A stretch of DNA of 64,000 nucleotides from Phoronis australis (GCA_002633005.1 NMRA01000168.1:499129-563128), one strand, 5' to 3'. Shown: positions 388-25,000, numbered from the stretch's first letter. The notes: generated from the letters alone by a model not told the origin. Made by a program: numbers and translations.

Positions 388-3300
388 CATATCCAATTCC
401 ACAGCCACAATTAGTAACAAAACAGTTGTCGATGTCCTTTGTCAAAGATGAACCCTTCACAATCTTGCCGACGTCTTTTTTAAATTTCTTGACAGCCTTT
501 TCTCTTACATTTTTCGTGTCACCACAAAATCCGGCTTCTTCGTTGGAACAAGAACTGTAAAAAAAAGAAAACAGATTTCAAAATATTACGATAGCCAAGC
601 AAGAATCAGTTAAACGCTTATAAAAAACAGGTTCAATTAGACCTCATTCGAAAAGGTTCAGGCTCTGGCAGTCCAAACGAAAAATCAATGCTTTGAGATA
701 ATTTATAACACAAATGCTCACCGTTTCTTCCAAAAAAAAAATTAAAATCGATAAAGCATTGTGTAGCTCACTGGTAGCTAATGGTCCTTACGCCAGTCTG
801 GCCTATACAATCAAATCTTGGTCGCCTAATGCTATTCAATGTGAAGCTGAAAGTGATGCACAGCATGCAGCATACTTACTGTAAGCTCAATACTTTTCAT
901 TACAGGTAGACGTGCCCGGGTCCACAAAAGCATACAGCTGGAGTTCAAAGAGTTCTACCATTTTATGCTCATATCTAAGCAAATATTGCAAGTTTACTCA
1001 AGCCTATCTTCAAATTCACAAAATGGAAGTTATGTCTGTATTACATGTACATGTAGCTTGTCTATGCAAAGGTTATAATTTGTCTATGCATGTCTGACTA
1101 GTTCACATATGGTTGACCAATTAAACTCACTCATAAAAGTACAAAAATCCGTTCCCACCAACTGCAGGTCTGATTGCAAGTATTGAGTTCTCGTTTCTTT
1201 GGGGTAATGTAGTTTTAAGTGGCATATGTGTCTTAACAAAGCTCATTGTATCAATGACATATTGAGTGATAATGCTAAGTCACATGTCATTCTGCATCCT
1301 AAACATAAACCTTTACTCTGCTTACGAGCATTTGTCTTCCGCGCGGCCATTTTTCGTTTTAAAACAGAAAAGTCCACGTTAGAATAAGGGGATGACAAAT
1401 AAAATCGTCAGATGGAAGGAGTAATAGTCGTTATAACAACTATCATTTGATGGTGCAAGGCCAATAAACTTGAAATAATCTCACGTGGGTAAACATTGAA
1501 CAATCAGTTTGGTAAATATGCAAGGGTAAAAACATAAAATAGCCAATAAGAAACACAGCGGTGATGAGATTCGTCCAGAAGTCATCGTCGTCCGTTGTGG
1601 TATTTCCAAATTTTGGGAAGATACTCCAAGAGATCCAGCTGCGGACGCTGATGAACCCAAACTGCGTCCAGAATATGTATAGTTAGGGGCATAAAAATGA
1701 TTATTTCAAATTCCCCAAAAAACGTGTGCAAATGGGATTATGGTGTTTAAAGGCAAAGGCAACCTTTTTTCATGTCATTTTTAGCAAAAATTAGGTTCGT
1801 TGGTTATCCCAGACATATTTTCAACTTAATTACAGCTTTTCGTAATTTAACTAAATATTCGTTCTCTACTCCGGAAGTGACGTTTTGGGAGGCAAGCATT
1901 TCCCGCCAATTTCTTTTCATATAGTCTGACTATGAGAGCTGTCGCCTCAGTCATTGATCTACCTCCGTTGTGATAAGTTCGGTCGTCGTTTGCTTTTGTT
2001 TACGAGTCAGTCAACATGCCACACTGTTGCTGCGTACCGGGATGTACTCATTATGGCCCAAAGCTTGTAAGCAGCCCTGCTGCGATGTTGAGTAGTGGGA
2101 GTGAATACAGGTCCAGTCAGTGAAGAGTACAGTTCATCGTTCAATGACCAGATCGGTGAGCCAAACTTTGATACGTTTATTGTGGACTTGTTTAAAGTAT
2201 TGGAGCTATTTAGATGGTGCCAGGTGTCTGGCGAGGGAGTCACACGGCGGGGTGTAAGCAGTTTGTGTGCTCAGGTCACTATCCAGTGGGAGTGTTGTCG
2301 CGGTACACTCGGGCAAATGGGACAGTTGTTCCTATGTCCGTGAGACAATAATGAGTACATCCCGGTACGCAGCAACGGTGTGGCATGTTGACTGATTCGT
2401 AAACAATAGCAAACGACGACCGAACTTATCACAACCGAGATAGAACAATGATTGACTCGGCAGCTCTCACAGTCAGACTATATGAAAAGAAATTGGCGCG
2501 AAATGCTTGCCTCCCAAAACGTCACTTCCGGAGTAGAGAACGAATAATTAATTAAATTAAAAAAAGCTGTAATTAAGTGGAAAATTTGTCTGGGATAACC
2601 AACGAACCTTATTTTTGCTAAAAAAGACATGAAAAAGGGTTACCTTCGCCTTTAATGTCACATCTCTAGAGAAAGGCACAAGAGCCAAAATTCCGGTGAC
2701 GAAAAAAATACACGAAAAAAATGTGTCAAAGAGTCATATTAAGTGAATATACGACCTATGATTTGACAAACTTCGCAAAAGATCTATTGAGTGAAGTTGT
2801 TAGCGCAAAGTGACAGAGTCTTTGGTCTGGAAGTTTGAATTACCCATCTTTATCAGACTGCTCAGTGATGAAATAGAAGTCTTCTCCAAACGGAAGGTCA
2901 AGGCAAGCTCTGGTTGAATTTACGGGGTCGATAAGTGCTCCTCCTGTTGACAATGTATACTTTACATGTAGACACATCCATACAAAGAAGGTAACAATAA
3001 AAGGAATTAGATGCAAAAGATATAAATCAAGACTTCGTGAAACTTTTTGTAAAACATTTTCCGACGTTGCCGAGCCAACCGGCTCCTTCTACTGGGCATT
3101 GATGACTGACTGTTTCCCTCAAAAATTTCGACGCTCTCTGCCAGTGTTCACAGCCAACAACTCCAAGGTCATGAACCACGAGTCGTACATACTGAAAAAA
3201 GTTCCCAGCTTTAAACCAGGCAACCTCTCTGACATCTCGCTCAAACAAAAAAATCTCTCTGTCCAGTACTCCCTCCAAGTCGACTGTCTCAAACTAGTGT

Positions 3301-6300
3301 CCTGCGCCACAAAATTGAACAAACACTATTGAGACTAGACCACTGGCATTTGCCCTGCGAGGCTGTGCTATGTGTTTTTTAAGCGACCATTCGCTATAGC
3401 TGCCTCTCTGCGAGGATCTGCCTAGAAGTTTAAAGTGGAGCGCTTGAGAACAGCGCTCACGCCCGTTGACACACTCAGGATTAACTTACTGCACGTCAAG
3501 CCAAACCTCAGCGTGGTGATGTCGGTGGAATTGTGTACCACATTATCTGCGATTGTGACGCACGTCACGATTCCTATGTGAGTATGAAAGTGTATGGCAC
3601 AACACCGCAGGGCAAATGTCAGTGTTTTCAACACCACAGTGCTTGTTCACCTTAGTTAGACGTGACACTCGTTTGAGACAGCCGGCGTGACGTTACTAGA
3701 CACAGTCCTTGAATTGAGTGGGGGTGTTAGTGAGGCTGTCTCGGTTAAATCCAAAAACGCTTCTTTGAATTTCTGTGAATAGACACGGAAGGATCAGTTT
3801 TAAGTTGTTTGACTCAGGTGTTCGCCTAGGGCCTTACAGATCTTGTCTATGAACAAAGGGCAACGATTTTCTTTTTCGCAGGCAGGCATCAATCCCCTGT
3901 AGAAAGCCCTGGATGACTCTGTAACGCCCGGACAATTATTTTACAGTAAGTTCCAGAAATTGTGATTTATTATTTTTCGTATCTAGTTATTCACCTGGGT
4001 GAATAGTGATGTCCATCGCCGAATAATACATGCTCCTCTCAAATACGTATTTGAGCCAATAGCAATTTTCAGTTGTGCTTATCAGAGAGTGGAAATGTTG
4101 TTAACGCAACTTATGACCTTGCCGCAACAAATACTCTTAATTCGCAAGGTCCATCACAATTTCTTAGTCACACAGCAAAATTTCTAAGAACGTGATCTTG
4201 AATCAGAAGGGGTATCTATGTATGATTGAAAGATACGTAGATGGAATTTTGCATATTTTGTAATCAAAACTCCTCGTAATCATGCTCGTTTTACCTTCGT
4301 TGATCTGTGTTGCAAAAGAGTTCAATTCCTTATACCATGGTGCACCTTCTGCATCCCATACAGTAAGCCTTCTAGATTCACCGACGACTTGAGGACGCAT
4401 GTCAAGATAGACTCTTTCTTTGTGAGCACCAAGTCCTAAAACCATTTGCTCGAAGTTAAAAATGGCGAGACAGCTTCGAGTCGTTTCTCTTGCCAGATCC
4501 ATCAAGTGTTTCGAACTCTTGGTGTGTTGCAGTTCCACGGCTTGACCACTTTGAAAACGGAAATTTTCTTGCACATGCCTTCTTGTAATATCCTGATTAT
4601 TGACTGAGTAAGTTCTATAAGCCGATTTATCCGCTATTTTGAAGTCCTGGAACCTGCCGCGAAGAAGTTCAAGACATTCCAATAACTTATCATCAAGTCT
4701 AAAAAAGTGTTTTCCGGGGTAAACAAAATCCTTTACAGAAAAGTGTTCTGAGAGTTTCTTATTTACGTCTCGCCCGTCTAATAACTTAGTTGTCCTTGTC
4801 TCATTTTTAAGTTCTTCGGGGTATGAATATTCGTGAGCCATGTATGTGGGTACATCGATGGCCAGAAGTTGTGCTTTTGGAAAAGATACCATTTCCCCTA
4901 GCTGTTCTTCTTGTGGAAGTGCGCATACCTCGAGAACGTTGTTAGCTCCCATTTTTACATAATCGAAACCCGCGCACTGAGCTAAAATCGAAAGTTGTCG
5001 CAAATCCTCCGCGGTAGCGTTTTCCAGCTTAAGCTTTGCTGCCCTGAAATAATTCAAAATATCAATATGTTATTGATTGGAAACAAGGTTTAGCACGAGA
5101 AGAACATAGCATTACCTGGGGTCGTAACATGTGGAACCACCAACGCCTCCGAGTCGTTGTGGTACAGCTACTCGCGATTAGATAACGCAGAGTGACCACG
5201 CAGAGAGACCACATGTAGATACAACTATTGACTATGGAAATATCAGCATGTTCATGAATTTTCGAAAACCAGAGGTGCTGCGGATCACGCTGCAGAACTA
5301 TCTTGTCGATATTCACCTGCCCTCATAATGTAGTGAACCGTCTGGGAACTTTCCCCACGAGTGTCTACTGCTGGATGTTTTTTCACTCCAAGCATCTTGA
5401 ACTTGAACTCGGCGACCGTCTGTAAAAGAGAATAGCCATTTCTTCGTAGATACAGATGCGACATCAACATGCAGTACGTAAAACTCAGACCAAGAAAATT
5501 AACTAGCAAAATAAAATGGGGAAATGTAGATTCACGCTTTCTGCTGACCAATTAAACTGCATTTTCAATTAACTTTGTTTCAGATTCAAACCAATGTCAC
5601 CATCGGCATTGCAGCTTCAATGAATCTCGAAATGTGCTTGGACAGACTACTAACCGAAGATTTACTCATATCAACTTCAATACATTCAAGCCATCAATAG
5701 AAAAAGATGCAAAATTTTCCACAATAATTCGAACCGAGTCTTAAATACTTAATGACTTATATTGCTCAGTTTCTTAAATGGGAATATTTTCAACGAACCG
5801 AAAAAGTTTCAACGACAGGCGGATTAAAAGCTTGTGGTAACACAAAGTAAACGGGGTTCTCATAACGAGGAAAAATGTGGTTACCACTCCATTTCTGTGA
5901 TGCCAAGCTAGCGAGGCGTCTTAGGCGATATGCAAGACGAAACGACATCATCCTGTCCGCACATCTATCCATGACGCCATCTTCCTCACTGGCATCGTCG
6001 CATGAGTTGCAGTGCTCTCCGTGTAAACCACACCAGCTGTCAGTCTTCTCATCGTTAATGAATAACACGTCATCGAAGATATAATAGAACAATCTAAAAT
6101 GCAAATAGTACGCGAGTATGACATTACAGGAATAAGCCCTGTACCCCCGATACCTGTACTCGAGTTTTGCACGGTTCATATTAACTGCATTTACAAGTGT
6201 TCTAACATAATTTTGAAGTACGTTTTACGCCGATCGAGTTATGAGTCTACAGCAACTTGAAATGAAATTGTGCCACGTCGTTGCACATAAAATAGTGAAA

Positions 6301-9300
6301 GCCCAAAATTAACAGCTGAGTTACGCAAGTACAAGCTGTTTGCGAACGCGATGCATTGAACACTTAAGATACTCTTTCGTAAGTTCTTGTCACTTTAAAA
6401 TAAAGAACGAGCCTACAAAACGCATTGAATCAGACAGTACCACTATATCCGTGGTTTCCACGAGTTGTTTGCCTTAAAATGAAACCCAAATGTTCCACAG
6501 CAAAACATTAACCAAAAAAGTAATAGCCCGGCATGAGGCTTCAAAAGAAATACGCACTGCGAGAATCTTTCATCACTTCTTTTCACAGGGTAAACGATTG
6601 GTTTGCAAAATTCTTCTTCTGACTTCGGGTCCCTTGAACTCTGACCTCTATTAAGAGCCGCAAAGTCATCCCCACACCACTCTATAGAGGGCCAATCACC
6701 TGAATTACAGAATTATTGCGAAGATATTTACCATCATAAGTGATTAGTTCGAAATTTTGAGCATTTCATACGCCGATAAAGTTATTGTCACTATTTCGTT
6801 TATTTTTTTTCAAAATAAAGTAGCCAACTTAAGAGGTGGTTTCTGCCTTCATTGATATTTTGGAGACACAGATTTCGTTACACGACACATAAGAATTTCC
6901 TAAATGATCAAAACTGTATCGTTGCTAAGATCTAATTTACATGGTGATCTTATTTGAGTTGAGGCAAAGAGTAAAGGGCTAACGGCTATTGAGTTCCATT
7001 GACACACAATTTAAGTAATCGAAATATGTCTAAGTTACTGGTTACGTAGTTTAGGGCTCTTTTTCATGAAATGGGAATTTCGACTAAGGTCAGAAATTCG
7101 ATCTTACGCTCTACAGAATTTTCTGGAAAAGGCCCTTTCAAAGCCTCGAGTATTATACATAATCATATTGACATAATTTGTAAAAACTATGTCTAGGCTT
7201 CGGTGTGGGATATAACTAAACTTTTATTCATGAATTCTCAAGTGGGGGCGTGAGACCAAATTAATGACGTAATTCTTTTTAAGTCACTTTTTAAGAAACA
7301 GACGCCAGGCTCCGTTCCCGGAATGCCACAAAAATGGCAGGGAAAGCAAAGGAAATTTAATCCTCAGTGATAGCGTTTACCTCCACTGTTCGGGCTAGGC
7401 CCAGAGCTTTCCGTGCTCCGCTTTCTTCTAGACGTAGAGTGGGACGTGGTTTCTATCTCATCTGTCTCGATACTTATTTTTGAAGAAGAATGGAGGTTTA
7501 GAACAATCATGTTGATTTTGTTCACAGCGGGTGCATGAGTGAAAACTGCTGAGCCCGTGCTTTCAAGGAAGTCTAACTGCTTCTTTTTATCGTTCGTTAC
7601 TCCTCGTCCACAGTGATAACCCGACTGGGGTTTGAATGTTACGTCGCCACCGGACTTTCGCACACTATTCAGTTTTAGAGCTTCTTCCAAGATTTCACAC
7701 CTTGGATGTCCATAACCTGCGTTCCAAGGATCTCCCGAAGAGATGATTACGCTTGGCTGAACTATGTTCAGAAAGTCAACTGAGTTTGCAGCACTACCTT
7801 TGCTACCGTGATGAGCAAGTTTGTATACATTGGCTCTAGCGTGACGTCTTTCGATTTTTGCAACCGTAGTTGCTCCCTCAATATCTCCGACAAATAGCAT
7901 GCGCAAGTTTCCGTACTCTAGTCGAAGTACAATGCCATTGTTATTTTTATTGCTAGTTGTCTGTGAAGCAAGAAGTACACGCATCACGGCAATAGTAGGT
8001 GCTGTACAAATTTGGTATGATCGGCAACTGTCCTGGCACTTTTCAATGGGTACGTACGTAAAGTTTTTTAGATTATCCTTTAAAGTCCGTTCTTGGGGCC
8101 GTGGATAATAAAGCTTTATGTTTCCTCGTTTCGTTTGCGGAATACGACGACCGATGAAGTTAAAATGGTCGGAGTCTGCGTGGGTAACAAATATGTGTTT
8201 GACCTTAGACATCTGTTTATTGTTAATGAAACTGTCTAGATTACTTTGAGAGAAGTAGCCCTTCGTTTTTGCGGATCTCGAACCCAAATCCACGAATGTT
8301 AAATCTCCACTGGGACACTGTATGACAACGGCATCCCCTTGTCCTACTGGAAGCTCATATACGCGGACAGCGTCCGGTAGTGGCCTTTTCAAACCTAGAA
8401 AAACGAAAACGTATTAGCCAGTATGTTAATTTACAGATATTTCAGTATCCTCGAAAAACGTTAAAGGCACTTTGCCTAAAACACATTGATGAAAAATACT
8501 AGTTATTGGTGGAGCAAAACATCTAATTGTCACATTGCAACTTCTTTATCCTTTTATCACCTCATTTTGACATTTTACAACGTCACGTGGTTAGTCCCGG
8601 TTATTGTACAAGACAAACGCATTCGCGATATTAACATTCGCAGTGTCAATTTACGTGTACTAACACAAGAACTATCATTTCAACTACACAACGATAAATA
8701 ACTCACAACGTAACACCTTGACTCAGCAAATCTGTGAATTATTTCCTGTCCTAGTTGCAAACTAATACAGTAACTGAAATCGTTACCTGAAGCTCCACGC
8801 TTAACATGTATGTTTATGTCTTCTCCGCTTAAAAATATGGGTTAAAGGTTTCTGAAATCATGCAGTGGTATCAGCCAAATATTTAAGTGTGCCAGCAAAC
8901 TAAAAGTTATTTAAATATTCAATGCCCAAGGTCGAACACCCCAATCATTGATTAACCGCACGTTTGAAGAAAAGCCAAAGCTATTTAGTTCTTTGCTCCT
9001 TTCTACACGTATAAAAAATTAGCAAATTGGGCACAACCATATGCCTTAATATTCATGTGAGCGATGAAACAGTTTCGTTTATTTTTGCATGGTGACGACA
9101 GTCAGGACATTGCTTCTTCCCATTGTTCGGGTGTAAGAAAAAAATAACATTTTAGGACCACGCGCATGAACATTACAGCAAAGGTTGAATTAACTCAAAC
9201 TTCAGTTGAGTCAAGTACAAAAACATAGTAATATTAACTTTCTTAGCATAGGCACATGTATCTCTATAATGAGATCAATTGGGCTTACTTCAAAATAAAC

Positions 9301-12300
9301 TCTTGTCTTTCATTGATTCAAGACTTGTCTAGTAAAATTGTATTACCGCCTTTTTCTCCAGACAAATGTGTTTCATGAGCAACCACAACAAACTTGGAAA
9401 TAAAAAGGAAATGAAAAAATGCTAGTCGGTGTTAAAACTGAAGTCCGACTCGCTTGACTGCTATCATTATATACCCGACGCCACCGTCAAAGAAACAGTC
9501 GTTCTGAATTTTAGGAACATCTTACCTATAGGTCTACATGTAGGTGATAAAATTGCCTAAGCTGCACATTAGAAAGATATGGCGGCAATATGCAGGCACA
9601 AACTTATATGTGGGTGCAAAATACAACTTTATATTTTCGTAACACACTCATCGACACGCCACTTTTGCAGTTTTTAAAACTATAATTATAATATAAGTGA
9701 TTCGTTGATTAGGGACAAATGTTACCCTTAGTTTAGAACAGCCTCCAGCATCCATTAATAATTTTCAAGTATATTGCATTGGAATAGTTACGTTATGTTG
9801 AGACTCTCCAAAATTAAGTGTCTGATACACTCGACCATAAATCTATCTGACACCCACTGCCAAAGGAAATAAAAATTTTCCATCATTCATCCAATCCATA
9901 CACACGACCAAACATCGCTCTGTGTGTTTATCTACATTTCAATCGGTAAAATACCGGAATGATAAAAGTCAGTGAAAAAACCAATACCGTTTCATACTCT
10001 TAAAGAGGAAGGCGACCATTATATACTGTCATTCCTAGATAAATAATGAATAATACTTTCTTACTCATCCCAGTCACTGTTCAAGTTAATTAAACTACTC
10101 CAGATTCTAATTAAAAGCATACTAAGCGCAGTTTTAGCCAATTAACAGATATTAACAAGGATTTCCCCATCCCGCTCTCTAAAACATTAGTTTTGTCACT
10201 CTCATAAATTCAACCCTCAAATGTTTGTATCAAGTTTAAAAAAACGCCTTATACAGAATAAGTTATTGCCCAACAACAAATCAAAAGACTGACTTAAACA
10301 AACCACAACATCCATTCTCTGACACAGTAATTATGTGTTTTTCGCCTTTATTATCCAAGTGAAACGCCAGTGGTCCATTAGCATGTGACTCAGCCAGGAT
10401 TGATTGAAATCACCAACACAGAGTTTAATATCCCTTTAAATATGGATTTGTCACTCATTTGTGACGTTAGTGGCCGGAACAATTCGCTGTCCTCTTGGTT
10501 ACGCTTCATAGTACACACCTGTTGATTGTATATTACTTTCCATTGCCGCAATCATTTGGTTTCGACAGGTACTCTTGAACTACCCTACATTGAATTAGAA
10601 CTAAGTTGAGTGGGAATTAGCTAGTAGCAGGGTACCACAAGTACACGAACCACATGCATAGTAAGGCCTGCTGGTTGTTAGACAATGACCATCGTCTCTG
10701 TCTGGATAGAGACAAAGGTCATTGTTTAGCTGGTTGTGGGCTTTAGACAATGCGGTGACTGTTCACACGCACGGGTGAAACCATATTCATAGCTCTGAGT
10801 TACCTACGTCAACGGGCAACGGTTCATTCTTGACAAAAACGATCCTATCTCGATGGACCTTCCTTAAGATATCGTTAAAATACTTTATTATACTCTTTAA
10901 GAGCTCCTGGTGCTGCCATCTCGCTGAGACCCAGAGAAAGACACATAGCGGACCAACGTGTTATAAGTTTACGTACACAATGATGCATATGATGTCAAAC
11001 CCATTATGATGAGCATATAAACAACGGAGAATGATTTGAGCCCCTAGTGTTAGTTTGGGAGTTACACATACATGATTAAATAGGAGCTGGGGGAATTTAA
11101 TCAGATTGAAAATTGACCATCAAACCAAAATTGAAACAAAAAACACTTGCCTTCCGCTTTAACTGATTCAAGGGTACTTACTTGTCATGTACATGTTTGC
11201 CACTGTATTCTGTTTTTTAGGTTGACTGGTCACGACGATTTTGTCTTGTCGTTTTTCCACATCGCAAAATTCAGCACAGTTGGCCAATTTCTTCAATTTG
11301 GCAAGAGTCTCTGGGCTGTTGTCAGCAGTGTTCGAATCACTACCAGTAACACCTAATTCTACTTTATAATTCCCTTTGCTTGAAGGTCTCACTAAGAGTT
11401 TACCTGAAAGTATTAAGTGAGTGACTTAACAAATCATGAGTTTTCGCATGAACACAAAGATGTTCGATAAATGTCAAGCTTGGAAACTCAGAAAGCAATA
11501 TATTCCAGACGATTTATCCAGTACTCATTCGCTCGCTTTGACCGATTGAAGGTAACGCATTGAGCATCATAACGACAGCTTCATACACAGAAATAAATGT
11601 TCGTTGACATGACCATTCGTCCTCTCCATAACGGATGCAACTTTCTTGGTTCCAGCACTGTAGCCATTATCCAAACAACAAAATTACCAAGAATTATCAT
11701 TACCTAGAGAATATCGAGTCAATGATTCTCCCAAATTACATCAATGGTTTACCCTTTTCCACCCAATCAAAAAACCCTTGACTTTCTCTTGCCCCTAATT
11801 TTCCACTCCAAAAGTCTTCCAGAGTATGATCATATGAAATAATTGTTTTGACATTGTTCGCTGGTATGCTCACGTTGATACTTTTACTTACGCCTGCTCC
11901 ATCCATCTTCGCGACGAACTACATCAACGAAATTACGAATTCTGTCTAATAAACTGGGGTCTACAGACGTTTGTTCATTGCCATCCCATATGACGTATGG
12001 TGATAGAGAGGAGGTAGATGACCTTCAGGAAAACCAGCAATAACAACAAATCAACAAAGTTGTATATGTCAAGCCAGCTTCATAACATGCATCTTATCTT
12101 TTTTGAAAACATCACTGATTAGTACAAGGTAGCCTACAAAGATGCACCACAGCAGCTCCGCTACAAATGTGGGGAACATGCGTTTTTGCATAAATGATCC
12201 ATTTTGTTTAGTTTGTATATAGGCAAGCATGTTACAATTGAAAAATCGTCAGTGACAAATTATAGGCCAAGGTTCATTCATATACATATACATATACACA

Positions 12301-15300
12301 TACATATATAAATACATACATACACACATACACACATACACACATACATACATACATATATGTGTATTTAAACATCGCATTTGACAAACTTCGCATAAGC
12401 CCTCGTGTCGTGCAAATACGCAAAATGAGTTTGACGTTGGACAAAGAGATTGTCATTTTTTGTCTTCTGGTTTGAACTCTTGATTTTCACATGAATGCCA
12501 CTCTTCAATGTTTCTGATAAGTCTATCAAAAGCCGAGTTGTATCATAATATTCTCAAGTTACAAGTTGTCTAACTTAGCCCATCAAACATGTTACGTTCT
12601 TGAAATTGTTGTGAGATGGAGCCTTTGGATGGAAGAATCTTACCGGCTGTAACATCTACGAGACTGCTCCAAAATGCACCAGAAAATTGTTCTAATTTCC
12701 ATACAGATACGACCATAAGCAGCAACGCCGTAATTCAAATTTGACTCGACACTCACCGTTGGTGACGACGTTGATGGGTTTCCCGTTTACGGCATTTGAT
12801 TTGAGGAGCAACTGGACAGACCAATTTTTCATCCGAAGCCAGATTAAAAGTATTCACACCAATCGTGTCTCCAAATGCCCATTTATACAACTCGTAGTTC
12901 CTAGAATTATCATTTGACTAAATTGATTGAGCAAACGATATCAAAGGTTGAATATTTTTGCTAATTTGAGAATCACCATAACGTACATGCCATATTATAA
13001 TGACAAACAAAAGAATATTTTTGTCCTCCGGAATCCAAAAAAAAAACTAAAATGAGGACATGATCATGCAAGAAATTTCAAAAAATAAGAACACATAAAA
13101 TTTGTCTAACAGGTTGCAAACTATTTCGTCAACGACTCTGTGCATTGTAGCGTGTAGTATAACACTTTCAAGATGAAATAATATATCAAGGAATTTATCA
13201 ACTTTTGACAACATTTTAACTGTGTCAAACTAAGAACTTGTTACACGTAATCAATTATACTCTTACTTTTCCATTTTGAGGAGTGAGATGGACAGCCTCG
13301 CTTGACGTATTTCGTACGGTACACCAATGAAAAGATCCGCCTTGAAAGTTCCAAGTGTGGCTTTTCCCATAGCCGAATGCAGTTGGTATGATAATTTGAG
13401 GACTGGCTTTAATCTACAATTTATACCGGATCTCTTCAAACAGCATCTCAAATCTCATTAAAATAACACTCAAATAAAAGCGCTAGGTTGGAGCGACACC
13501 TGGAGAAATGGAATGAGAATTGTTGACTACGACATCTGGACCACGCTCCAGGCTATGATGATGACGCTGGCAGCAACACGAATGTTGCCGTCAGCAACAC
13601 AATGCCTGGATAGTAGGTCAACAACGACCACAACAAAACTGAATCGCCATAATGGTATGTTTTCATGATGCCTATTTCACGAAATGAACAAATGAAGGAG
13701 AAGCAGCATTTCAAATTGTCCATACCTGTATTGTTAAAACTGTAAATGCGTATTTGAAACAGATTGTCACACGCACTGACTATTGAGATCGTTGAAAATT
13801 TATCGTATAAATAGCAAAATTGGCTTATTTTGGCAGGTTTATCAGGTAAATGATAACTTTGATGCTTTAAAGAGTGTCAAATAATTTTTTTTTCGAAAAC
13901 GCATTATTTTGTAAGGACACATGAAGAACATGAAAAACCGAAGTCATCGCAAAGGTTATACATGCGTATGGATCGGGTATTATGCTTCAAGTACTTACCG
14001 GAACAAGGCAAAATTTGTTACGAGATATAAATAACATAATCAAGAAAGACCTGGGAATCACCTAGCAACGACAGTTACTGTAATCTGACGCTCCAACAAC
14101 GACGAAACACTAAAAACACCACATCTCTTTCACTGAAGATGACGCAGCGGACGGCAACATCGGCGAGTCATCAATGTAAAAGAGACGAGTTTGATGTTGA
14201 TACCGTGACAACTGCCAGTGATGATGCCATCAATGCTGGCGTTTACATTCAACAACTACATGTACCAACGCTGACAAGTGGAAAGCACACCCGGCAGCTA
14301 TAGTTGGCACTGTACGGGAAGACTTCAGTCGCAAATTGCCAAAAATTAAATACTAAGAGCAGGTAATTACTGTATGAGCGCACCTCAGTCAAGAAATAAT
14401 TTATAAGAATTATCTCAGTAAATAACGGTTATGCGTATATTTTTAGAAAGTGCACTTTGCTTATATGAGATTGAAATATTTTTCAAAAATAGTCATGAGT
14501 CACTCAGTGTCAAGAAACAGACCTCTGGTTTGTGTTTATAATCATAATGAATATATACAGTACTGTTATGTTTTTGTGACATGAAATGATAGCTTTAATC
14601 TGTATTCTGTTATCAATCTGATGCTTCAATGAAAGTATACGTATGTGGCGTCCTTTAAACTACTACCTGCATGGTCACTGATGTTCAAATGGCGTCAACA
14701 TGTTGTAATTGATAACGGGTATCAGTTGACAATGCTCGATAGCAGTGTCAACAATCAGCAATGAAAGTTGTACCAGGTAAATGGTGACCGTTCTGAGCGA
14801 GGTGGCGGCCTAGAAACACTTCATAAGCGAAATCATTTCAAATCGAAAGTTTAATCTATTGGCTGCTCATGACGAAGTTGTGATGAGGACCGTCATTTTA
14901 AAATTTTTAAATTTTAAAATCATTAAAATGATTACTTTCGCTGAACTCGCAAACAGTGTGGCTAGGTGTTGCACGTAAATGTACGTGTAACACTAGGCAC
15001 AGACCTACGTATAATTTCATACTTTCAAAATGTTCAACAAACTAGTCAAATCCTACTGGTTGAGAACGGCAAGAACTTACCCAATCGCAAAAGGCTGCGA
15101 CAACACAATGTCCAGTGCACCGGCTTTTCCCCATCCTATTCCGACTGCCACTTCGACCTGAGACGAAAACATGTTATGAACAAGAAAAGTCGCGTTTTAC
15201 AGCTGCTCCTTTTACAGTTTAATTCAGTTTATTCATTGGTTTAATGTCTCAATATTTTGCACACTTAAGAAACACAAATAAACTCACTGTTGCTTTCACA

Positions 15301-18300
15301 AAATCATATACGTGCAGACAAAGACCCCAAAATTGTTTTTACTGGGTCCTAGATCTAGAGAAGAAAATCAACTCGAATAAAGCAGATGGTAGTATGCACT
15401 GCTTTCAGCCATAATGTATACGAATGGAGTAGATGCACAGTGTACTGGCGTAGTCACAAGGGGCGCGGTGTGGCACAACCATCAGCTTCTAGTTCCAGCG
15501 TTCATTTTTCTAAAAAGAAATTGCTCATTTCATCCGGTGAACAATCATAGGTGTTCGGTTTTCACCGCTACCAATGAATAATTGTGGCTACGCCGGTGAA
15601 TAAATCACGAGATTCTTTTTATATAACCTCAAATCATTTCACGGGCGTCTTTACACAGAACACAATTACGTACTGAGATGAATCATGATAATTTGAAAAA
15701 CATCAAACCTTCGGATGCACGCTAATTGACCCCAGAACATCTGCACCATAATCAATTTTTGACCTGTGTCGATTGGCATTGAAAATGGGATCAACCTTCA
15801 CCTTCATTTGCCCATCAGCCTCCATTCTGTTTGCTGTAAATGTAAGGGTAACCCATGTCATTAAGTTTGTTTTATGTGTCTTTACTGACAGTTGACGTTT
15901 TCTTTCAACACAGTGGGATCAAGCAAATCGTCCATCGTAATATGTACAATATATCCTATTCAGTTATTTTGTGTCACCTATTGTTGCACTCAACACATAC
16001 TGTCGTTCGTGTGACAATTTATATGACGTGAAATTAGACACCTGTTGTCGCACGCCCGAAATTTTTTCGAGTGCAACAACATATGCCACAACAGTTTCCA
16101 AATGTGCAGTAAACACCGGCACATTGTGTCGTACTTAACTGTGTGGTTAAATTACCAGGGTTTTGTCGTATAAGCAAATCCAGAGTCAAAAGGAGACACA
16201 AAACTGTGAGGAAGTGTAATAGAAATTGGTGGAAGGGGAACAGTTCCACGAACTGGTTGGTGAGGATGATAACCATCCCTGATGACAACCTCGTTTGCAG
16301 AAGAGTTGCTTTTACAAAAAGGTAAATTAAAAACATATTCCCTTCAACTTCCGTTAGTCTCCCACTCAAACTCCTGATTCAAATGTCAACCCCCTTTAAC
16401 ATACAACTCTTCAACTAATGTTTGTATTTGCCCGTGTCGTCACTCAGGCCTACGCACAGAATCGTACAACCATATTAGTAAACATCCATGCAGATGCTTT
16501 TAGTTGGACGATCACATGTGCCATCACGCCGCGACAACACATATCGTCATATTCGACACATGTATGTCGAGTATGATAATACACGTCACCAAAAAGCTGT
16601 CTTGCATTTATTTCTTCTAATGGAAACAATACATACATGTTCAGTTTTTAACACCTACAAGCAAGTTCCCGTGTGAAGCACAGTGTTGTAGCATATATTT
16701 TCGCACTCTGTATATATTGTCCCACAGGCGACAATAGTACAGAGTGCTTGCTGCAACATATACCGTCCACATCGACATATACGATCTCCCGCCCAAAAAT
16801 CACAGATTGCCACTTGGTTTTAGTTAAACTTGACCAGTCGTTATACATGTATGGCTCGCTTACAGGTAACTTTGCAACCGACAAAGTAATGTTCACCCAA
16901 CTTAATTCCTAGTCTATTTAATTTGCGTGCTGTGACAACAACCTTTTAGTGCATTCAAATATAATTTTTACCGGCCCTACTGGGGATGACATGGATCTGA
17001 TAGGAATGATGATTTCATTGAACTGCACTTACTGACAGTGATGCTTCCAGTGGCGTCAAAACCAGTCGTAAACGACACTTCTCCATTTGATTGTATTGAA
17101 GCGTCAAGCCAGAGCTCAGGTGTTAGTTGGACATCAATTTTTATCCCGAGCACCAGCATTATTTCGAATTTAACCGGTGTTGGTAATTGCCACATTTTTT
17201 TGTTGTACTTCATGTTGTACTCTCCAGTGATGGTGAAGGAGAGATCATAAAAGATTGATGCCTGTCCACTGAGCTGCAAGATTAAAATGACAAGAAATAT
17301 GTATCCATGTATAGTTGTCGGTCAAGACAAGTACGTGCTTGTTATTCAAAATTTAGAGGGAAATACAAAATGCAAGCCAGCATACGTAGGGCCTGGAAAG
17401 GAGTACATGGCCACTCGTCTTGATTCGATCCCCTAAACTTCAGTCCTGGACAAGCAAACACCATGATTCCATAACTGCTTCGCGCCTTGATTCCATACAT
17501 GACGCGATAATACCCCGTATCTGGTAACGACACACCATACTCAGGAACCATACTCCAAATCCGGGTATCATCACCGGTTTAGGGTATTACCGGTGCGTGT
17601 ATGGCTTGGGAAGTGTATGGGTAACACCAGTCTGTTGTTTGCTGGTCCCGGTCGATGCTTTAAGTAAGGGCGTCCTAGCTGAATTTTAGAGACACCGCCA
17701 TGGAATGGGTTCTCCCCTATGGAACAGCTTTTACATGTAGTGCATTTCATCCATATCAAGCAACATACAGTACATGGCAAATATCTAAAAGTAAATGTAT
17801 TCGCATTTTCGCATTTGTTTCATGGTACACGTCCAACTCATACTGGGTTGTAGACCACAGGAAGCTTATAAAATAACGTCTTGTTCTGTTTTTAGTAAAC
17901 TGAAACAGGGAAAGGATTTGACAAATCTCTAAGCCATCCTAAATCCGCCTATATAATGACGAATTATGCCACTCTGGCAGTTGTATCGGTTTGTGCAAAA
18001 GCAGGGGACGAGGTTACACTCAGAATATAGAGAATTTCATATTTGTACTTGTTACCTGTAAGATATATTTCTTTATGTCTGGATAACCCTTAGAGTCCCG
18101 AGACATTTCAAGTTCGCTGGAAATGAAGTAAATATAAGTTACTTTTATAAAACTACGTAGATGTGTAAAACAGAAACAATAAGAATCAAATCGTTTATGT
18201 ATCCATCATTACTATAAGTAGGTTATACATATTAACTAAAACACCTTACAAGGAACTTCTTGCTCAAATACACCATAGAAGTTACGGCACCAAGTTGAAT

Positions 18301-18883
18301 CAGATTTTATTTCATGCGCTCGTAATAGAACATCAACCGGCAGATAGTTAAATCGTTGTTACGAACCGACATACCTTCATAAAGTTTCCAACACATGAGT
18401 TCGAAAAAAATTCCAATCACATTTCCCCATGTTACGTATTGTTTTGACTATTTCTTATTTGAAATGCAATAATGGAGGTGAGTATCCACTTCTGGAATTT
18501 GATAATTACACGGCGTTCAAAGCATTTCAAGTTCCTGTTCCAGATAAAGTACTTCTGAAACGTCGGCGCATAACTCATAAGCCACATAATGATAATGTCC
18601 CCTTCAGTTAGTGCCTCAGTTACAATGCATACCTCAAAGCCAACTCAGGGTCACCTTAGTAAAAGATTACATTAACTTGCATTACGGTTGCCTCGAGCTC
18701 ACCCCAGCACCACGTTACTGCTGAAGTGGTAGAAAAATCAATCGCCATATACGATTACTTATGAAGAAGCACTTACAAATGTATTGTTAATTTTTCGTCA
18801 TTGTTTATACGCAAATCAATATTATATTATTATTTTCAGTAGTAAAGTTGTTATTTTTGATTTTATTAAATAGTATTGCTATC

Positions 18884-18942
<59 letters not shown>

Positions 18943-19064
18943 CGTTATCATTGTCATTATCATCATTGTAGTTGTTTTTGTCATTGCTGTTATTTTTGTT
19001 GTTGCTGATTTTGTCATCCTCATCTTTTATCATCATCATGATCATCATCATCATCATGATCATG

Positions 19065-19096
<32 letters not shown>

Positions 19097-22000
19097 TGTC
19101 CTCATCATCATCATCGTCATCGTCATTATCGACGATAATGATAATAATGCAGCTCGCAAAACAATGGCTCGCCAGTGACCAGTGATTTTTTGTGTGAAAT
19201 AAACCTTGAGGCCTTTGAATCCTATTGCAAGTGACAAGTTTTTCAGTTGCAGTACCTCAAAAAGTTAACCGCTTTTGTTGAAAGCGGTTATGCACAAATA
19301 ATAATTTCGTTATCAATACTGATTGCAACGTCATTAACTGCTTTTCTGTTATCCATTTTAAAAACAATGTCCACCAAAATTTTCTTTTTATGTTGTTCGA
19401 AAAATTATAATACCATACGACTTTTTACAAATGTGACTTCTGTTCATGCCTAACACGAAAATACTTAGTAATAGTTACCTTTGAAGGCTATTGATACAAC
19501 TAATTTTTCTTACAAAGACCCCGTTCCCTCGTCATTTTAGAAAAAGACTTCATAGGATAAATTTCATCACAAGGCAATGACAATCATTGAGATGGCAGTA
19601 TTTTCTCAAAAGGAACAAATATTCAACTTTATATGTTTGAACTTTTGGTGGTATCAAAATGCTAAGATGAGTTTAGTGGCAACACATAAACTAATAACTT
19701 ATGACAGTGGTAATTGCAAATAAACACAGGGTCAGGATGCACGAAATAACCTATTTTAGTGTTTTCGTTTGATTTATGGAACCGATAATAGGATCTAATT
19801 AATTAAATCGGGGGTAAAAAAAAAGAAAAGGGAGTTTTTAATAGAATTAAAGACTCTGGGAGCATTCAAATCATTCAAACTTAGCTTGCAACGTTGTGCT
19901 TTCACCTAAATGTTTTATAATCCAGTAACTGAACTGAATATGAAACAAACATGGGATCAACCTCAAAATCATTAGCAACAGTTCTTTAGTCACATCCAGT
20001 TTGTTCTCGTCAAAAATATATCAAATTAACCTTCATCGAAGTAATTCTTGGTGAAGGAATGACAGATCGCTATGATAGTGAACACCTAGAAGAAAGGTAA
20101 ATTATAACTATTCCGTTCATGCTTCAGAGCGTTTCTGGTCACTTTCAAATAGATTATTTCATGTTCACAATATAGGTAAATGGTATTTTCAAATAGTTTT
20201 AAGGGCAACGCCGAATTGACGAGTCTGGGAGATAATAAAATTACATAGAATTGTGTACGTTGCTTGTATGTACAGGCGACCTAGCTGTGAGAACTTGGAA
20301 AAATACACTTGTTTCTATATCTTTTAATGTTTTTGGAATTCAGAAACACTCGCATTACCTAAATGCGCATTTATTACACTGAAAAACGCAAAACAGCTTT
20401 AATTACCGTTACTTCACGTTACGGTGACGCCAAGGTGACCCTAAGGTGACACTAAAGTCACCATAAGATACTTCGAGTGACTCATTTGCGACAATTCGAC
20501 AATTGTGTAATTCTAAGGAAGAACTCTTTACGGTAACCTTGAGTAACAGCTCGCTGTAACTTAGATGGGTTCGCCCCAGGAATGTACCACGTAAAAACAA
20601 CAGCTGCAATGGCAATGACAATACCGGTATTTGACCTATTCGTACTACTGAACCTCTACAGAAGAAATGTGAACATCCTTGAGTTAAAACATTTTGGCAT
20701 AACACAAATACTCACAAAATAACACTGGCATCAAATGCGAAGTAGCATGTCGTGCATTCTAGTCTTGACTTCACAGACCCTGTACTTTCTAACCTGGAAG
20801 TCTTTGTTTCGACAGTTTTTTGATGCTGAAGCAACGTTTTTGTCACTGTTTCAAAACCGATATCTTGTGTCTTCCCCATGCTGACCACGAACGTTCCAAC
20901 AGCACTTTTCGTGTCTGGGTCATAATTTACACCCACACTTTTGCCATTGCTGAAATTCCATTCGACTGGAAAAACCAGTGATAAGGGGTCTTTTATAGCG
21001 CCAACGATATTTTCCTTAATGTCATTTATAGTGTCCAAACGATCGGAGATCCAGCCTCTTCTTTGGCGGACTTTTGAGTATGACGAATAAGTCTTTGGTT
21101 CTTTTTTCGCTGGTACGCGATGGTAAAAGATCTTGGCGTGCTCAAATATATCATAAAAACTGAAATATACAACTCAAACTGCAAATGATATTCACACGTC
21201 ATCATTTTATTCTTCGAGATCAGCTCAGAGAATAAAGACGACCATTGCTTGACACTCCTTAGACGCTTGAAATTTGTCACGAGAAAGGCGAGTGCTTTAC
21301 GAATATGCTCATAACAAAATGTCCACTGAAGTGAGTGACTGGACAGTGACGGCGGAATGTTGAAGGATAAAGCTCATTGAAAATATTTCTGTCTGCAATT
21401 ACATCGCCTTGTTTTATTTTGCAATTTGACAACGCTTAAAATAATTTAAACCTGTCAGATATACGAAATGATAATTATTCATGACTTGAATTATCTATAT
21501 TTTGTTTCTGGTATAATCATGTACCACCGAGAAATGATGAATCGCTTTCTAATGATGTGACTCTTACGCAACCGCGGAGTTGAGAAGACTTTTAGTCACA
21601 GTAAGCGCCATAGCAAGAACCAACATAGCAGCAAACGATTTCAAACAAACGCCACGCATGCACGGGGCAACCTCACCATCGCAAGATCGAAGTTGGCATT
21701 CCGGGGCTGGAGTTCTATGTTAGAATTCCGAGTCTAGCTATACATCGGGCGCTATCAAAATCGGGTCATGATAACCAAGAATAACACGATTCAGCAACAC
21801 CTCATAATACACTGTACTTCATAGCGAGGTGCAGTGATGAAGTAAATGAATGGATTTGCAAACAAAAACTAAATAGATTAAGAGGTTGAATCCACTAGGA
21901 AGTCCAAGTACGTTACCTTGCTTCGGAAGTAATGACCTCAATGCGCTTGCTATTTACTTTTTTAACCGAACTTATCTTTCGGAATATTCCTTTCTCAGCG

Positions 22001-25000
22001 GCATGTGACAACCCTAGAAAAAACACTGTGTAATTAACGCAAGGCTGTGACAATACAGTCTGATTTAGTTTCTGTTAACCAGGAATGAATCACATCCATG
22101 TACTTACCTAAAACTATCAACAAATGAGCATAGCTTTTGGCTGGGTTATGGCTGCACAAAGCTGACCAAAGAGTCTGATTGAAATCGATAACAAGTTATA
22201 TTTCGTGTTAGTTTCATAGAAGGAGATCTGCTCATGAAATAAGCCTGTTAATAACCGATTGGCTTAAAATAGAATAAAATACAATTGTGTCCTTCAAAGT
22301 TGCTGGAATCGAGTTTGTCCAATTAGGTTGGTAAAGTTTAAAGTAAACAAATTGCTTTTAGTACATTGAAACGAACCTATCATTCAATAGTTGTCCTGGG
22401 TGTAGTATAATCCGAAAGCCTGGTGGTCTTACATTCTGTATTAATAACCCCGGTAACATTTAATTGGGGTCTCCAAAAAGTCAATCAAATGGTAGTATTC
22501 TCCATTAAATTCTGTCTAAAGCGTGCCATATGGTTGTTAAGCCATCGCCTATTGCTCACCTCTCATCAACAACAAGTGCTCGCACAAACACAGTAATTAA
22601 CAATTCTGGGCACGAACCATCATTTTCGCTACACTTCGGACCATGCATGTACATGTAACTGTTTCAGAAGTGCCAAGAAACAAAGAAAGGTCCCCTCAGT
22701 GGACATAAAAGAAACTTAGGCCATTTATCATACTATTCATTTCTGTGCCAAAAGCTGTCCTACATCTCATGTTGTTGCAGAGCTTCAAATCATTGCCGTT
22801 GCTCAAGGAAATCACCTAAAGTTCTTCTTAAGTTACGTCTGACAACATCTTGGATTTCCAAACAAACTAACTATCGAGAGTGCTCGCGAATGCTCTCATA
22901 CTGTCGCCAGCACTCGCCTGCTAAAAACTGTCCAAGAAGCGAGCGCTCACAGACACCCTCCTTTTTGATCACGCGTCTGTTTGATGTTCTATCTAACAGT
23001 GCAATAAACGAGACCGAGAGACGTCCACTTGTAGGTCATCAGAGAACGAATGAGTGAACAAACGTTGTACAAGAGAAAAGACAGTGGAAAGGTGATAATT
23101 GGAAGACAGACCAAAAGATGGAATGCTCCGCGGCAATTGCTGGACAAACTGGACGTTAAAACAACCAGTTACCAAGCCATTTTTTCTTAGACCGGCGAGG
23201 TCAACAATTGAAAACAACGAGTTACTCTGGTATTAACACATGGAACTCGATCGATCGTCGACGTCAGCAACATTTCAGTTTCTACCTCCTCTAGCTTAAC
23301 CGTACTCTTTCATTTCTCGGACCTCTAGTGCCTCACACGCTCCTTATCCTGTGAGTTGCTCGATCACGATTTAAGTAGCATGATCTCTTCTCTAGGCATG
23401 ACTGGCGTACCATTACATGCGTGTACATCATGCAACCATTAGTGGAGTGTAGAGTTATAAGTTCTGGGTCCATTCTGGGAAATATAAATCCCCGCCATGC
23501 CAATACATGTATTATCTATGAACCGTAATCAAAAGACCGCATACTTTTGTCAAAGTTTATTTTATCCATTAAACAAAGACAGGCTAGTTGATAAAATTCA
23601 AAACTTTCTGAAAACTCTAGTTTGAATTCAAAGAGCAGTAAAAAGAGGGAGTTAGTAACTTTACAACCATGTTGTCTTATTCTTGCAAAAATTCCCGGTT
23701 TTGCTTAAAATCAAAGTGAAGATGACCAACAGGTGGCCTGTTACACTATAATATTGAAAACACGAATTTAACTCGCGGCGTGCAAGTCTGTTAATCTTCG
23801 TTTTTTATTTCAGTCACACTATTGAAAAACAGCATCATTGTTAAAACAAACCCTGTTGGCACTCCCATTGGTCATCGCCCGTAATGACGTCACCATTGGC
23901 CCACTCATTAGCAACGTGTGCATCTTCAAATATGAAAATTAATTTGTTGCTGATGCAGACAATCCTCTGAAATAGAAAAAAAACCCCGTTCAGGTCGAAA
24001 TGAAAAGCATTACCACGACTAATGAGAAGCGTTGTATGAATGTTGAAGTAGAAAATATTACCCAATAGGAAAGAGCTGTCAATCGGCCAGACTGAGGCTC
24101 TTAGCTAACTAAGCAGCTGCAGTAACAGTATCGACAATGTTCATTTAAATGTGGTAACAGTGCAATTACGATATTCTTGGGACAAAACTTTGTCATGGAG
24201 TCTCCTGAGATAAAGCATGCTGAAACCAGTTTATCAAAATCTGCAAATAATAAGGTTTTTCAATGAAAGTCAGTGGGGGTGTTTTTGGTGATGTGCCAAA
24301 AATATTCATTTTGAGATAACATATATTTGGTTGTCATGTCAACATCAATATTACGTAAAACCCATAGGTCCATGAGAAACGCTNATAACTCGTATACGTG
24401 TGGACATTTTTTGATACATTTCTCTTTGAATTATATTAGAAACAAGGATCTATAATGTTACGAGAGAAAAGTCAAAAAATCTTTACCGTTATCTTTAATA
24501 CGCTTCTGAAAATTGGATTAAATCGGAAAATTTCATTTTTCAAAACATGTTTTTTATGTTGAAATTTGGAAGAAATGTCCTAGAAATTTCGTAGATATAC
24601 ACGTAAGTACATTCCAAGCCAATTTTCATGAAGTATACCTCAAACACAAATATTTTCAAATCTAGTCTGCACGTCACCTTTTGGCTATATCACATGACCT
24701 AATGAATGTGGCCAACAGGTGACCTTTCAGTCTGTGATACATAATATTTCCACGCCTGTTCAAGATTTACATATTAATACACTTCTCGAAAAGATTTTAT
24801 TTATATCATTTCTTATCAGAAACATGCACGCTTTGAGAAACACAAGAATGAAAGATAGCAATGCATTTCCATGTTGCATCGCAATATACTTCATATAAAA
24901 TGCAGTTTTGATGCCATTTTAAACAAAATTTAGTCAATCTCCATTCTAGAACAGCGGTATGCATGTTGTGTCAATACGTGATTTCTGGTGGTCAACAGAG

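Follow-up and report, generated by a model that had tools for sequence, protein, structure and literature searches.

Hint-less, non-catalytic Hedge proteins were named Hedglets by Jagers and Roelink in 2021 (PMC8052667). Seven of them were listed there, from lophotrochozoans, amphioxus and a starfish, among them Branchiostoma XP_002599309.1 and Acanthaster XP_022111291.1, and were predicted to be non-catalytic. Their distribution was called enigmatic and a derivation from Hedgehog (Hh) was suggested, while the available text of that account covers the 105-residue domain only and treats neither architecture nor function. The term itself was met in two versions of that single paper only, in a literature search with subscription papers outside its range. 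Other described relatives are Hedgehog (ShhN, IhhN and DhhN; PF01085 followed by Hint), hedgling, and the bacterial Hedgehog-like proteins (bacHh) of the M15A subgroup, Hedge and M15 both having the DD-peptidase fold (PMC6027127). The present analysis concerns a Hedge-containing gene on the minus strand of a 64,000-nucleotide stretch of Phoronis australis DNA (GCA_002633005.1, NMRA01000168.1:499129-563128), which is called the window below, with positions counted from its first letter; a Hedge domain outside any hedgehog or hedgling gene had been noticed there in a first-pass annotation made from the sequence alone.

It was found that the domain is one module of a spliced and expressed gene of the long Hedglet form, encoding a protein of about 1,700 amino acids. 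The proposed order of its modules is a predicted signal peptide, a beta-rich domain, an eroded remnant of a first Hedge domain (Hedge-1), a metallo-beta-lactamase (MBL) of the ComEC type, an RRKR site, Hedge, a ligand-less M15-like domain and a Cys-rich tail. As in Hedglets, zinc ligands of Hedge are lost (two of the three) and Hint is lacking, and as far as the border of the window the gene keeps the same order as homologs that have no Hint. The core of Hedge, M15-like and Cys-rich C-terminal domains is common to the window gene and the Hedglets, and with the amphioxus and starfish members it also has in common RCADR, an insert before SLHYEGR, the GSLHYEGR lead-in, RAAKL and the Cys in LAxCA (PMC8052667, available text); the Branchiostoma1 stretch of that paper corresponds by eye to our homolog P0173. 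The seven published Hedglets, with Hedge at residues of about 270-420 (same source), fit by eye a short clade of about 950 amino acids with the order M15-like, Hedge, M15-like and tail. The window gene, in contrast, belongs to a long clade whose members have two Hedge domains behind a beta-rich N-terminal one, and it alone carries a ComEC-type MBL.

The window is intron-rich animal DNA of about 38% GC, and the Hedge domain is spread over four minus-strand exons (Table 1). Reads of runs X7 and X8, with contigs of a third run in part, join all four, at 6558-6093 (19/11 reads in X7/X8), 5885-5419 (27/12) and 5317-5043 (34/11), so that the joining on which the first-pass annotation hinged is borne out. 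The exon with RRKR is joined to 6699 by 20/7 reads with 19 letters between the matched sides, which would represent an allele with a 9-nucleotide in-frame insertion. Together with five further exons the Hedge exons form an RNA-joined set of nine, which reads through 944 codons between 12022 and about 390 with no stop; loose ends at either side show that the transcript extends past this set in both directions. Nearly all first mates map to the plus strand, the pattern that a minus-strand RNA gives in most stranded libraries. In run X9, from the same study, reads fell on a repeat only and no joint of this gene appeared; expression of 4200-12022 in X7 and X8 with no joints in X9 suggests tissue or condition specificity. 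Among the variants listed (40 rows out of 169) there are 31 coding ones, of which 19 are synonymous where 26% would be expected (p 5e-5), and the reading frame is therefore under purifying selection. Minor GT-AG joints at 554-3193 and 2942-3489, with 3 reads each in X7 and X8, indicate a possible alternative exon near 3190-3490. At its other end the transcript passes the window's left border, and about 200 further residues are expected beyond it by comparison with homologs (profile position 1205 of 1426). By profile the C-terminal domain has no solved relative, only Hh being matched among 25.

Spliced together, the Hedge exons score 88.9 bits against a profile of bacterial Hedgehog domains, compared with -0.4 for the reversed domain and 5.4 for the top of 1000 shuffles, and the best pairwise match among the bacterial domains has an E of 2e-17. 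This profile was built from 49 distinct domains, drawn from 52 motif-bearing frames in 53 loci (L001-L053) after one outlier had been dropped and duplicates merged; a profile of 14 of these matches Shh with E 4e-57. Genes of this kind, many of these loci being from Polyangiaceae, are thus far more widespread than the dozen given in PMC6027127 (available text). Singly, the exons are weak: PF01085 is touched by exon 5419-5317 only, at E 0.15, and against solved structures they give chance matches only. Profile search, which the first-pass annotation had called for with HH_signal, was positive for the spliced domain with the bacterial profile. ADRMMS, SLHYEGR, AGFDYV, RAAKL and LEV were all recovered on the minus strand where they had been placed, RAAKL, AGFDYV and LEV within the exon starting at 5043. 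The alignment likewise upholds the eroded zinc site, with H140 kept, D147 replaced by K and H182 by E, and there is no catalytic Glu. Some of the calcium ligands have also gone (E90D, E126D, D129S and D131K by alignment, in the numbering of PMC8052667), and the Cys-rich insert, present as annotated, puts 26 residues into the calcium loop, where its cysteines would form two disulphides. No CGPGR, Hint, VWA or cadherin was found before or after Hedge by Pfam on the window exons or by domain order, in agreement with the earlier reading. That reading missed the MBL domain upstream and the M15-like domain downstream in the same frame.

Set against Hedgehog, the window domain has the same Hedge fold and sequence with ADR and SLHYEGR. 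It is, however, internal, lacks the N-terminal Cys, is followed by an M15-like domain instead of Hint/Hog, bears the Cys insert, and has eroded zinc and calcium sites. Hedgehog starts with Cys directly after the signal peptide, whereas the window Hedge is joined by RNA behind the MBL exon, and the Hedgehog zinc motif H-x6-D, H-x-H with its catalytic Glu is not found. Hedgling (Nv 200640 type) resembles the window gene as a Hedge without Hog with an incomplete peptidase motif in a large extracellular protein. In hedgling, however, an N-terminal Hedge is followed by VWA, cadherin and EGF repeats (PMC2362128, available text), none of which occurs in the window or in the 30 of 30 homologs scanned. 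The bacHh proteins keep H, D, H and E and form a clade of their own, unlike the window domain, although Chloroflexota members also have an insert before SLHYEGR and CAGFD. Five of these (L005, L012, L017, L026 and L042) show the insert, CAGFD and a C-terminal CxxC in a Hedglet-like manner, yet group with the bacterial domains.

In the M15-like domain, which follows Hedge directly, the zinc-ligand positions read F, E and Y instead of H, D and H, and at the third of them all 28 homologs compared have Y or F. The exon matches PF08291 below the cut-off (E 0.07), the phage endolysin family phrog_894 (E 2e-4) and Atlas M15 clusters (0.93-0.94). The closest homolog, Lingula P0121, is 35% identical over 531 columns; its model from a 50-row alignment has a mean predicted local distance difference test score (pLDDT) of 80, and over 90 in the Hedge and M15-like domains. 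Residues 86-270 of this model match ShhN (Z 19.9, root-mean-square deviation 2.3, 144 aligned), and residues 282-475 the Zn DD-peptidase 1LBU (Z 10.1, root-mean-square deviation 2.5, 119 aligned), with LysECD7 (Z 7.2) and ChiX (Z 6.8) as further matches of the M15-like domain. The fold of peptidase M15A is in this way found by way of the homolog, its H, D and H ligands not being found in the window. A vasohibin, for which the exon gave weak matches (structures at E 0.18 or worse, Pfam at E 0.03), was dropped as a reading because the homolog model has the M15 fold.

The MBL occupies one exon directly upstream of the Hedge exons, which RNA joins in frame at both borders in all reads, with none skipping it. 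It matches PF00753 (E 1.7e-6), ComEC proteins down to E 4e-19, the ComEC structures 9ic4 (E 8e-14) and 30bt (E 3e-12), and TIGR00361 (E 3e-17, below the family's cut-off). All metal motifs are present and invariant in the alignment, namely HxDxDH (motif II), Asn (III), Asp (IV), His (V) and YGHP. The C-terminal MBL of ComEC has been described as a Mn-dependent phosphodiesterase and nuclease, the closest solved relative of which was a teichoic-acid phosphorylcholine esterase (PMC8579336, available text), and motifs II-V are common to it and the window. The window MBL differs in having no membrane channel domain, in its 29-34% identity, in cysteines like those of P0193 and not of the bacterial matches, and in standing in a multi-exon animal gene; PF03772, the competence membrane domain, had no match on the window and the MBL is flanked by Hedglet exons. 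From these motifs a metal-dependent phosphodiesterase or nuclease activity is likely. Direct transfer of the exon from bacteria was considered and is not shown, its best matches being 29-34% identical and a secreted relative having the same cysteines. This relative, P0193, is a stand-alone secreted ComEC-like MBL of 381 amino acids with no Pfam match and the cysteine pattern of the window MBL, and it points to an undescribed secreted MBL family.

Upstream of the RNA-joined set, ten exons, including one with a signal-peptide-like N-terminus, very probably belong to the gene; their addition gives an uninterrupted frame of 1520 codons that begins with the ATG at 26893. Against a profile built from seven long homologs the first six reach 83.6 bits (top of 200 shuffles 3.9), and the beta-rich domain that they suggest is common to long mollusc Hedglets. 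RNA loose ends of 29 reads in X7 connect exon 12900-12757 with 12022. A 48-nucleotide candidate exon of phase 1-1 at 16156-16203 on the minus strand could be inserted into this chain with the frame kept. The Hedge-1 remnant scores 14.2 bits against a Hedge-1 profile (top of 1000 shuffles 8.2); it has neither the Cys loop nor SLHYEGR and holds, between the beta-rich domain and the MBL, the position of Hedge-1 in the long forms.

Table 1. Modules of the Hedglet gene in the window, from the predicted start to the left border
Feature	Position	Strand	Content and evidence
Predicted first coding exon	26618..26893	-	ATG at 26893; hydrophobic signal-peptide-like N-terminus, judged by eye, outside RNA coverage
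Nine predicted exons, beta-rich N-terminal domain and RQRR site	12757..23966	-	GT-AG chain, one open frame
Beta-rich exons singly	23966-23852, 22013-21917, 21159-20716, 18116-18056, 17273-17033, 15833-15709, 15157-15081, 13413-13267, 12900-12757	-	predicted
Eroded Hedge-1 remnant, two exons	12022-11892, 11403-11182 (11182..12022)	-	RNA joints 29/18 and 14/6 reads, two allele forms summed
ComEC-C-terminal-type metallo-beta-lactamase and Ser/Thr linker	7381..8394	-	single 1014-nucleotide exon, phase 1-1, directly upstream of Hedge exons
RRKR convertase-type site	7418..7429	-	between MBL and Hedge, about 25 residues ahead of Hedge; seen in sequence, cleavage presumed
Hedge exon 1	6558..6699	-	N-terminal strands and helix equivalent to Shh RNSERF
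Hedge exon 2	5885..6093	-	calcium-loop equivalent, four-Cys Hedglet insert, ADRMMS, long helix
Cys insert	6038-5961	-	directly precedes ADRMMS (5960-5943)
Hedge exon 3	5317..5419	-	VQDAW strand, 8-residue insert, SLHYEGR
SLHYEGR	5336-5317	-	last codon split by intron; H140 codon 5330-5328
Hedge end and M15-like exon	4295..5043	-	D147K, AGFDYV, H182E, then M15/DD-peptidase-like domain directly
Linker exon of Hedglet C-terminal region	2844..2943	-	RNA joints 42/21 and 45/22 reads; long-form profile E 0.009
Cys-rich C-terminal domain start	390..554	-	RNA joint, loose ends at 386, 3' end approximate; long-form profile E 6e-8

A HMMER search with the exon of the Hedge end and M15-like domain gave 62 homologs, none above 44% identity. 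A word-based search with the same exon (0 of 2099 candidates) and a metagenome scan (0 of 58 stretches confirmed) gave nothing and must be regarded as insensitive, since HMMER found the 62. Among 30 long homologs scanned, 27 match HH_signal, none has Hint, VWA or cadherin, and none has a lactamase family; an MBL profile found nothing in any of the 62. Some homologs bear the UniRef label 'Hedgehog N-terminal signalling domain-containing protein'. When 30 representatives were looked up, 28 were found in the collection and 22 had species names, all of aquatic animals or a choanoflagellate: a brachiopod, molluscs, echinoderms, hemichordates, a lancelet, the sponge Oscarella pearsei and a craspedid choanoflagellate, with no cnidarian among the 22. 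The model of 944 amino acids matches P0173 (Branchiostoma floridae) with E 3e-32 over 437 columns and P0149 (Asterias) with E 1e-44 over 480.

In 28 of the homologs the four cysteines of the insert have 22, 23, 20 and 23 carriers respectively, the insert being missing from the rows of choanoflagellate type, while D147 is kept in one (the sponge) and H182 in none. The insert and the erosion of the zinc site, which had seemed odd in the first-pass annotation, are thus family-wide traits of a kind already named Hedglet (PMC8052667, available text). In the choanoflagellate homolog P0159 an additional M15_4 domain, which passes the Pfam cut-off (E 3e-10), has H-x6-D and the second His intact, and the sponge homolog P0156 carries added trypsin and PLAT domains, from which repeated recruitment of hydrolases by the family can be deduced. 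Residues of about 720-1320 of P0156, in which there is no Pfam match, we take by eye to be two repeats of a degenerate VanY-type peptidase with a peptidoglycan-binding-like helix pair.

A core tree of 28 rows and 477 columns, drawn with midpoint rooting, unites the window with Lingula and eight long mollusc forms (support 100/99). Separate from these stand a short clade of 14 rows (100/98) with lancelet, echinoderm, hemichordate and a second mollusc set, a three-row clade of choanoflagellate type (100/99), and the sponge. The pairing of the window with Lingula is weak (84/34 there; 88 and 90 by the Shimodaira-Hasegawa-like approximate likelihood ratio test, SH-aLRT, in other trees), so that by these matches alone a lophotrochozoan host is probable but not certain; a coral as host, an early idea, is unsupported, given the identities of at most 44% and the lack of cnidarians among the named representatives. 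In a quick tree of Hedge alone, 18 bacterial Hh domains make up one clade (SH-aLRT 97) to which none of the 34 Hedglet domains belongs, the trees being of Hedglet and bacterial sequences without Hh, hedgling, Patched or HHIP; Shh matches the bacterial profile with E 4e-57, as against E 6e-22 for the profile of Hedglets. P0142 and P0154 are outside the core alignment, and P0143 (Pinctada), which looks mis-predicted in its Hedge part, is within the 28 rows of the trait counts but not in the core trees. Contamination of the source assemblies is conceivable for the sponge and choanoflagellate proteins, an animal contaminant being less likely for the latter because two further rows group with it. 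Two choanoflagellate proteins have been classed as hedglings (PMC8052667, available text), and P0159 may be related to them. Since it lies outside the short clade, the window gene is not a plain Hedglet of the published type, and the two-Hedge forms of brachiopod, molluscs and window make up a second, long Hedglet subfamily. In the same literature search neither this two-Hedge form nor a fusion with an MBL nor any Hedglet of a sponge or choanoflagellate turned up in print.

With respect to function, the protein is likely to be secreted through the predicted signal peptide, and a convertase would rather probably cut it at RQRR and RRKR into the beta-domain, a piece with the Hedge remnant and MBL, and a piece with Hedge, M15-like domain and tail. 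The last of these could not be lipidated or released in the manner of HhN, because it starts with Ser and there is no cut behind Hedge. As zinc-less peptidase folds, Hedge and the M15-like domain would, by prediction, hold cell-wall peptide but leave it uncut; for the inserted ComEC-type domain the prediction is a metal-dependent phosphodiesterase or nuclease. The product of this gene could well be secreted, cut by a convertase and engaged in binding or digesting material of bacteria, an account that we favour tentatively; that the substrate is bacterial and the role one of feeding or defence is conceivable with slightly more reserve. Such a role is suggested because every recognisable module is of bacterial cell-envelope type, because the choanoflagellate M15 is live and the sponge protein has trypsin, because all named holders are aquatic animals or a choanoflagellate, and because a neighbouring gene has an M23-like exon. 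Rusticalin (PMC6339383, available text), a secreted invertebrate protein with Cys-rich parts and a domain like bacterial cell-wall peptidases, resembles it in working only; likened by description and not by homology, it has another architecture and no Hedge domain.

Several points weigh against this account. A peptidase fold that is dead may bind almost any partner, as Shh does with proteins and glycans in solved structures, and the substrate, the binding and the localisation are all read from sequence. Cephalopods and gastropods, which are not filter feeders, hold the family. The MBL cannot be the family's core function because it is present in none of the 62 homologs, and RRKR is not conserved, a basic site between both Hedge domains occurring in 2 of 7 long forms. 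The signal peptide is a prediction, and of the ten upstream exons only the last has an RNA tie. The evidence for the fold comes from a homolog of 35% identity, the window's own exon folded alone having an unusable pLDDT of 44.7. Finally, an A insertion at 4700, in 2 of 49 X7 reads and an X5 contig, would put the M15-like domain out of frame and is either an error or a null allele.

The same modules could serve in a structural or matrix protein, in which dead Hedge and M15 folds would be glycan-binding blocks of mucus, cuticle, tube or shell and the MBL would modify matrix phosphodiesters. This agrees with a large, Cys-rich and likely secreted protein with several basic sites, with the family-wide loss of zinc ligands, and with the binding of heparin and chondroitin sulphate by ShhN (structures 4c4n and 4c4m). 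However, the gene model has no low-complexity or acidic matrix repeats, a choanoflagellate member has an intact M15 peptidase, and no such protein is named in the shell matrix protein literature listed, and a matrix role seems rather unlikely. Whether the MBL shares any function with the rest is a separate matter, for the exon might be a recent passenger, an exonised copy of a stand-alone secreted MBL gene, with the protein working as other long Hedglets do; this would be compatible with the other readings. The single, intronless and symmetric exon, its absence from 62 of 62 homologs, the cysteine pattern of P0193, the basic site between MBL and Hedge part and the 3 of 6 listed variants in it that alter the residue would suit such an origin. 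On the other hand, all border reads join it in frame without skipping, and the preservation of its metal motifs next to a decayed Hedge-1 suggests that selection has favoured a replacement; a mere passenger is unlikely.

A role in modulating the Hedgehog pathway has also been weighed, the released Hedge fragment acting as a decoy or co-factor on glypicans, Ihog/CDO or Patched and shaping Hh gradients. The Hedge fold of the homolog model is complete, with the helix and the SLHYEGR surface kept, and animals with Hedglets also have Hh (PMC8052667, available text). Nevertheless, the calcium ligands are partly lost and their loop is interrupted by the insert, the zinc ligands, used in HHIP binding (PMC6027127, available text), are gone, and sponge and choanoflagellate have the Hedglet core without true Hh (PMC8052667), which leaves this role decidedly improbable. 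A convertase-released, Hint-independent Hedge ligand signalling like Hh and marking a stage in the emergence of the Hedgehog ligand, which the RRKR about 25 residues before Hedge in the same transcript had suggested, is very improbable indeed, as there is neither an N-terminal Cys for acylation, nor Hint for cholesterol, nor a cleavage site behind Hedge, the N-terminal Ptch1-binding residues (PMC8052667, available text) have no counterpart, the bacterial Hh domains are set apart from the Hedglet domains in the Hedge tree, and Shh is nearer to the bacterial profile than to that of Hedglets. The site itself, slightly outside the region first annotated, is real. The release of a ligand from it does not stand, the following residue being Ser and not Cys, at least about 500 residues remaining fused downstream of Hedge, and the sole further R-x-K/R-R sitting inside the Hedge helix.

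Beside the gene with its putative role in handling bacterial material, and head-to-head with it, lies a large multi-exon gene at about 30100-62100 on the plus strand, its exons being predicted. It has a lipid-transfer part like Vitellogenin_N (PF01347, E 0.11 at 48650-49018) and a peptidase-like M23 exon at 60563-61159 (Atlas 0.91-0.92), so the window holds two adjoining large genes with cell-wall-peptidase folds. An inverted-repeat element at 1747-2655 lies in an intron, with arms of 308 nucleotides that are 93% complementary and 293 nucleotides apart, and has reads on both strands in all runs; it is likely a non-autonomous DNA transposon. A short frame in each arm starts like what we take to be a THAP domain.

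What is new in this locus is the architecture, the nuclease-type insertion and the age of the family, Hedge outside Hh and hedgling having been known already. With an intact enzyme domain on an otherwise dead-enzyme scaffold, it offers a first handle on Hedglet function. The gene reveals no new route for releasing a Hedgehog ligand; the bearing on Hedgehog-ligand origin that had been claimed for it holds for the evolution of Hedge, as a separate old lineage, and not for a ligand precursor. The published suggestion that Hedglets derive from Hedgehog is likely wrong, because members occur in a sponge and a choanoflagellate, groups without Hedgehog. There would then be three Hedge lineages to account for, Hh/bacHh, hedgling and Hedglet. 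It is possible, though we propose it with considerable caution, that Hedglets are the third of these, pre-animal, older than Hedgehog and independent of hedgling, and represent a secreted bacteria-handling scaffold of dead peptidoglycan-peptidase folds to which single lineages have added live hydrolases, namely an M15 peptidase in a choanoflagellate, trypsin in a sponge and the ComEC-type nuclease here. If this were true, the Hedge fold would have reached animals first as a microbe-binding module.

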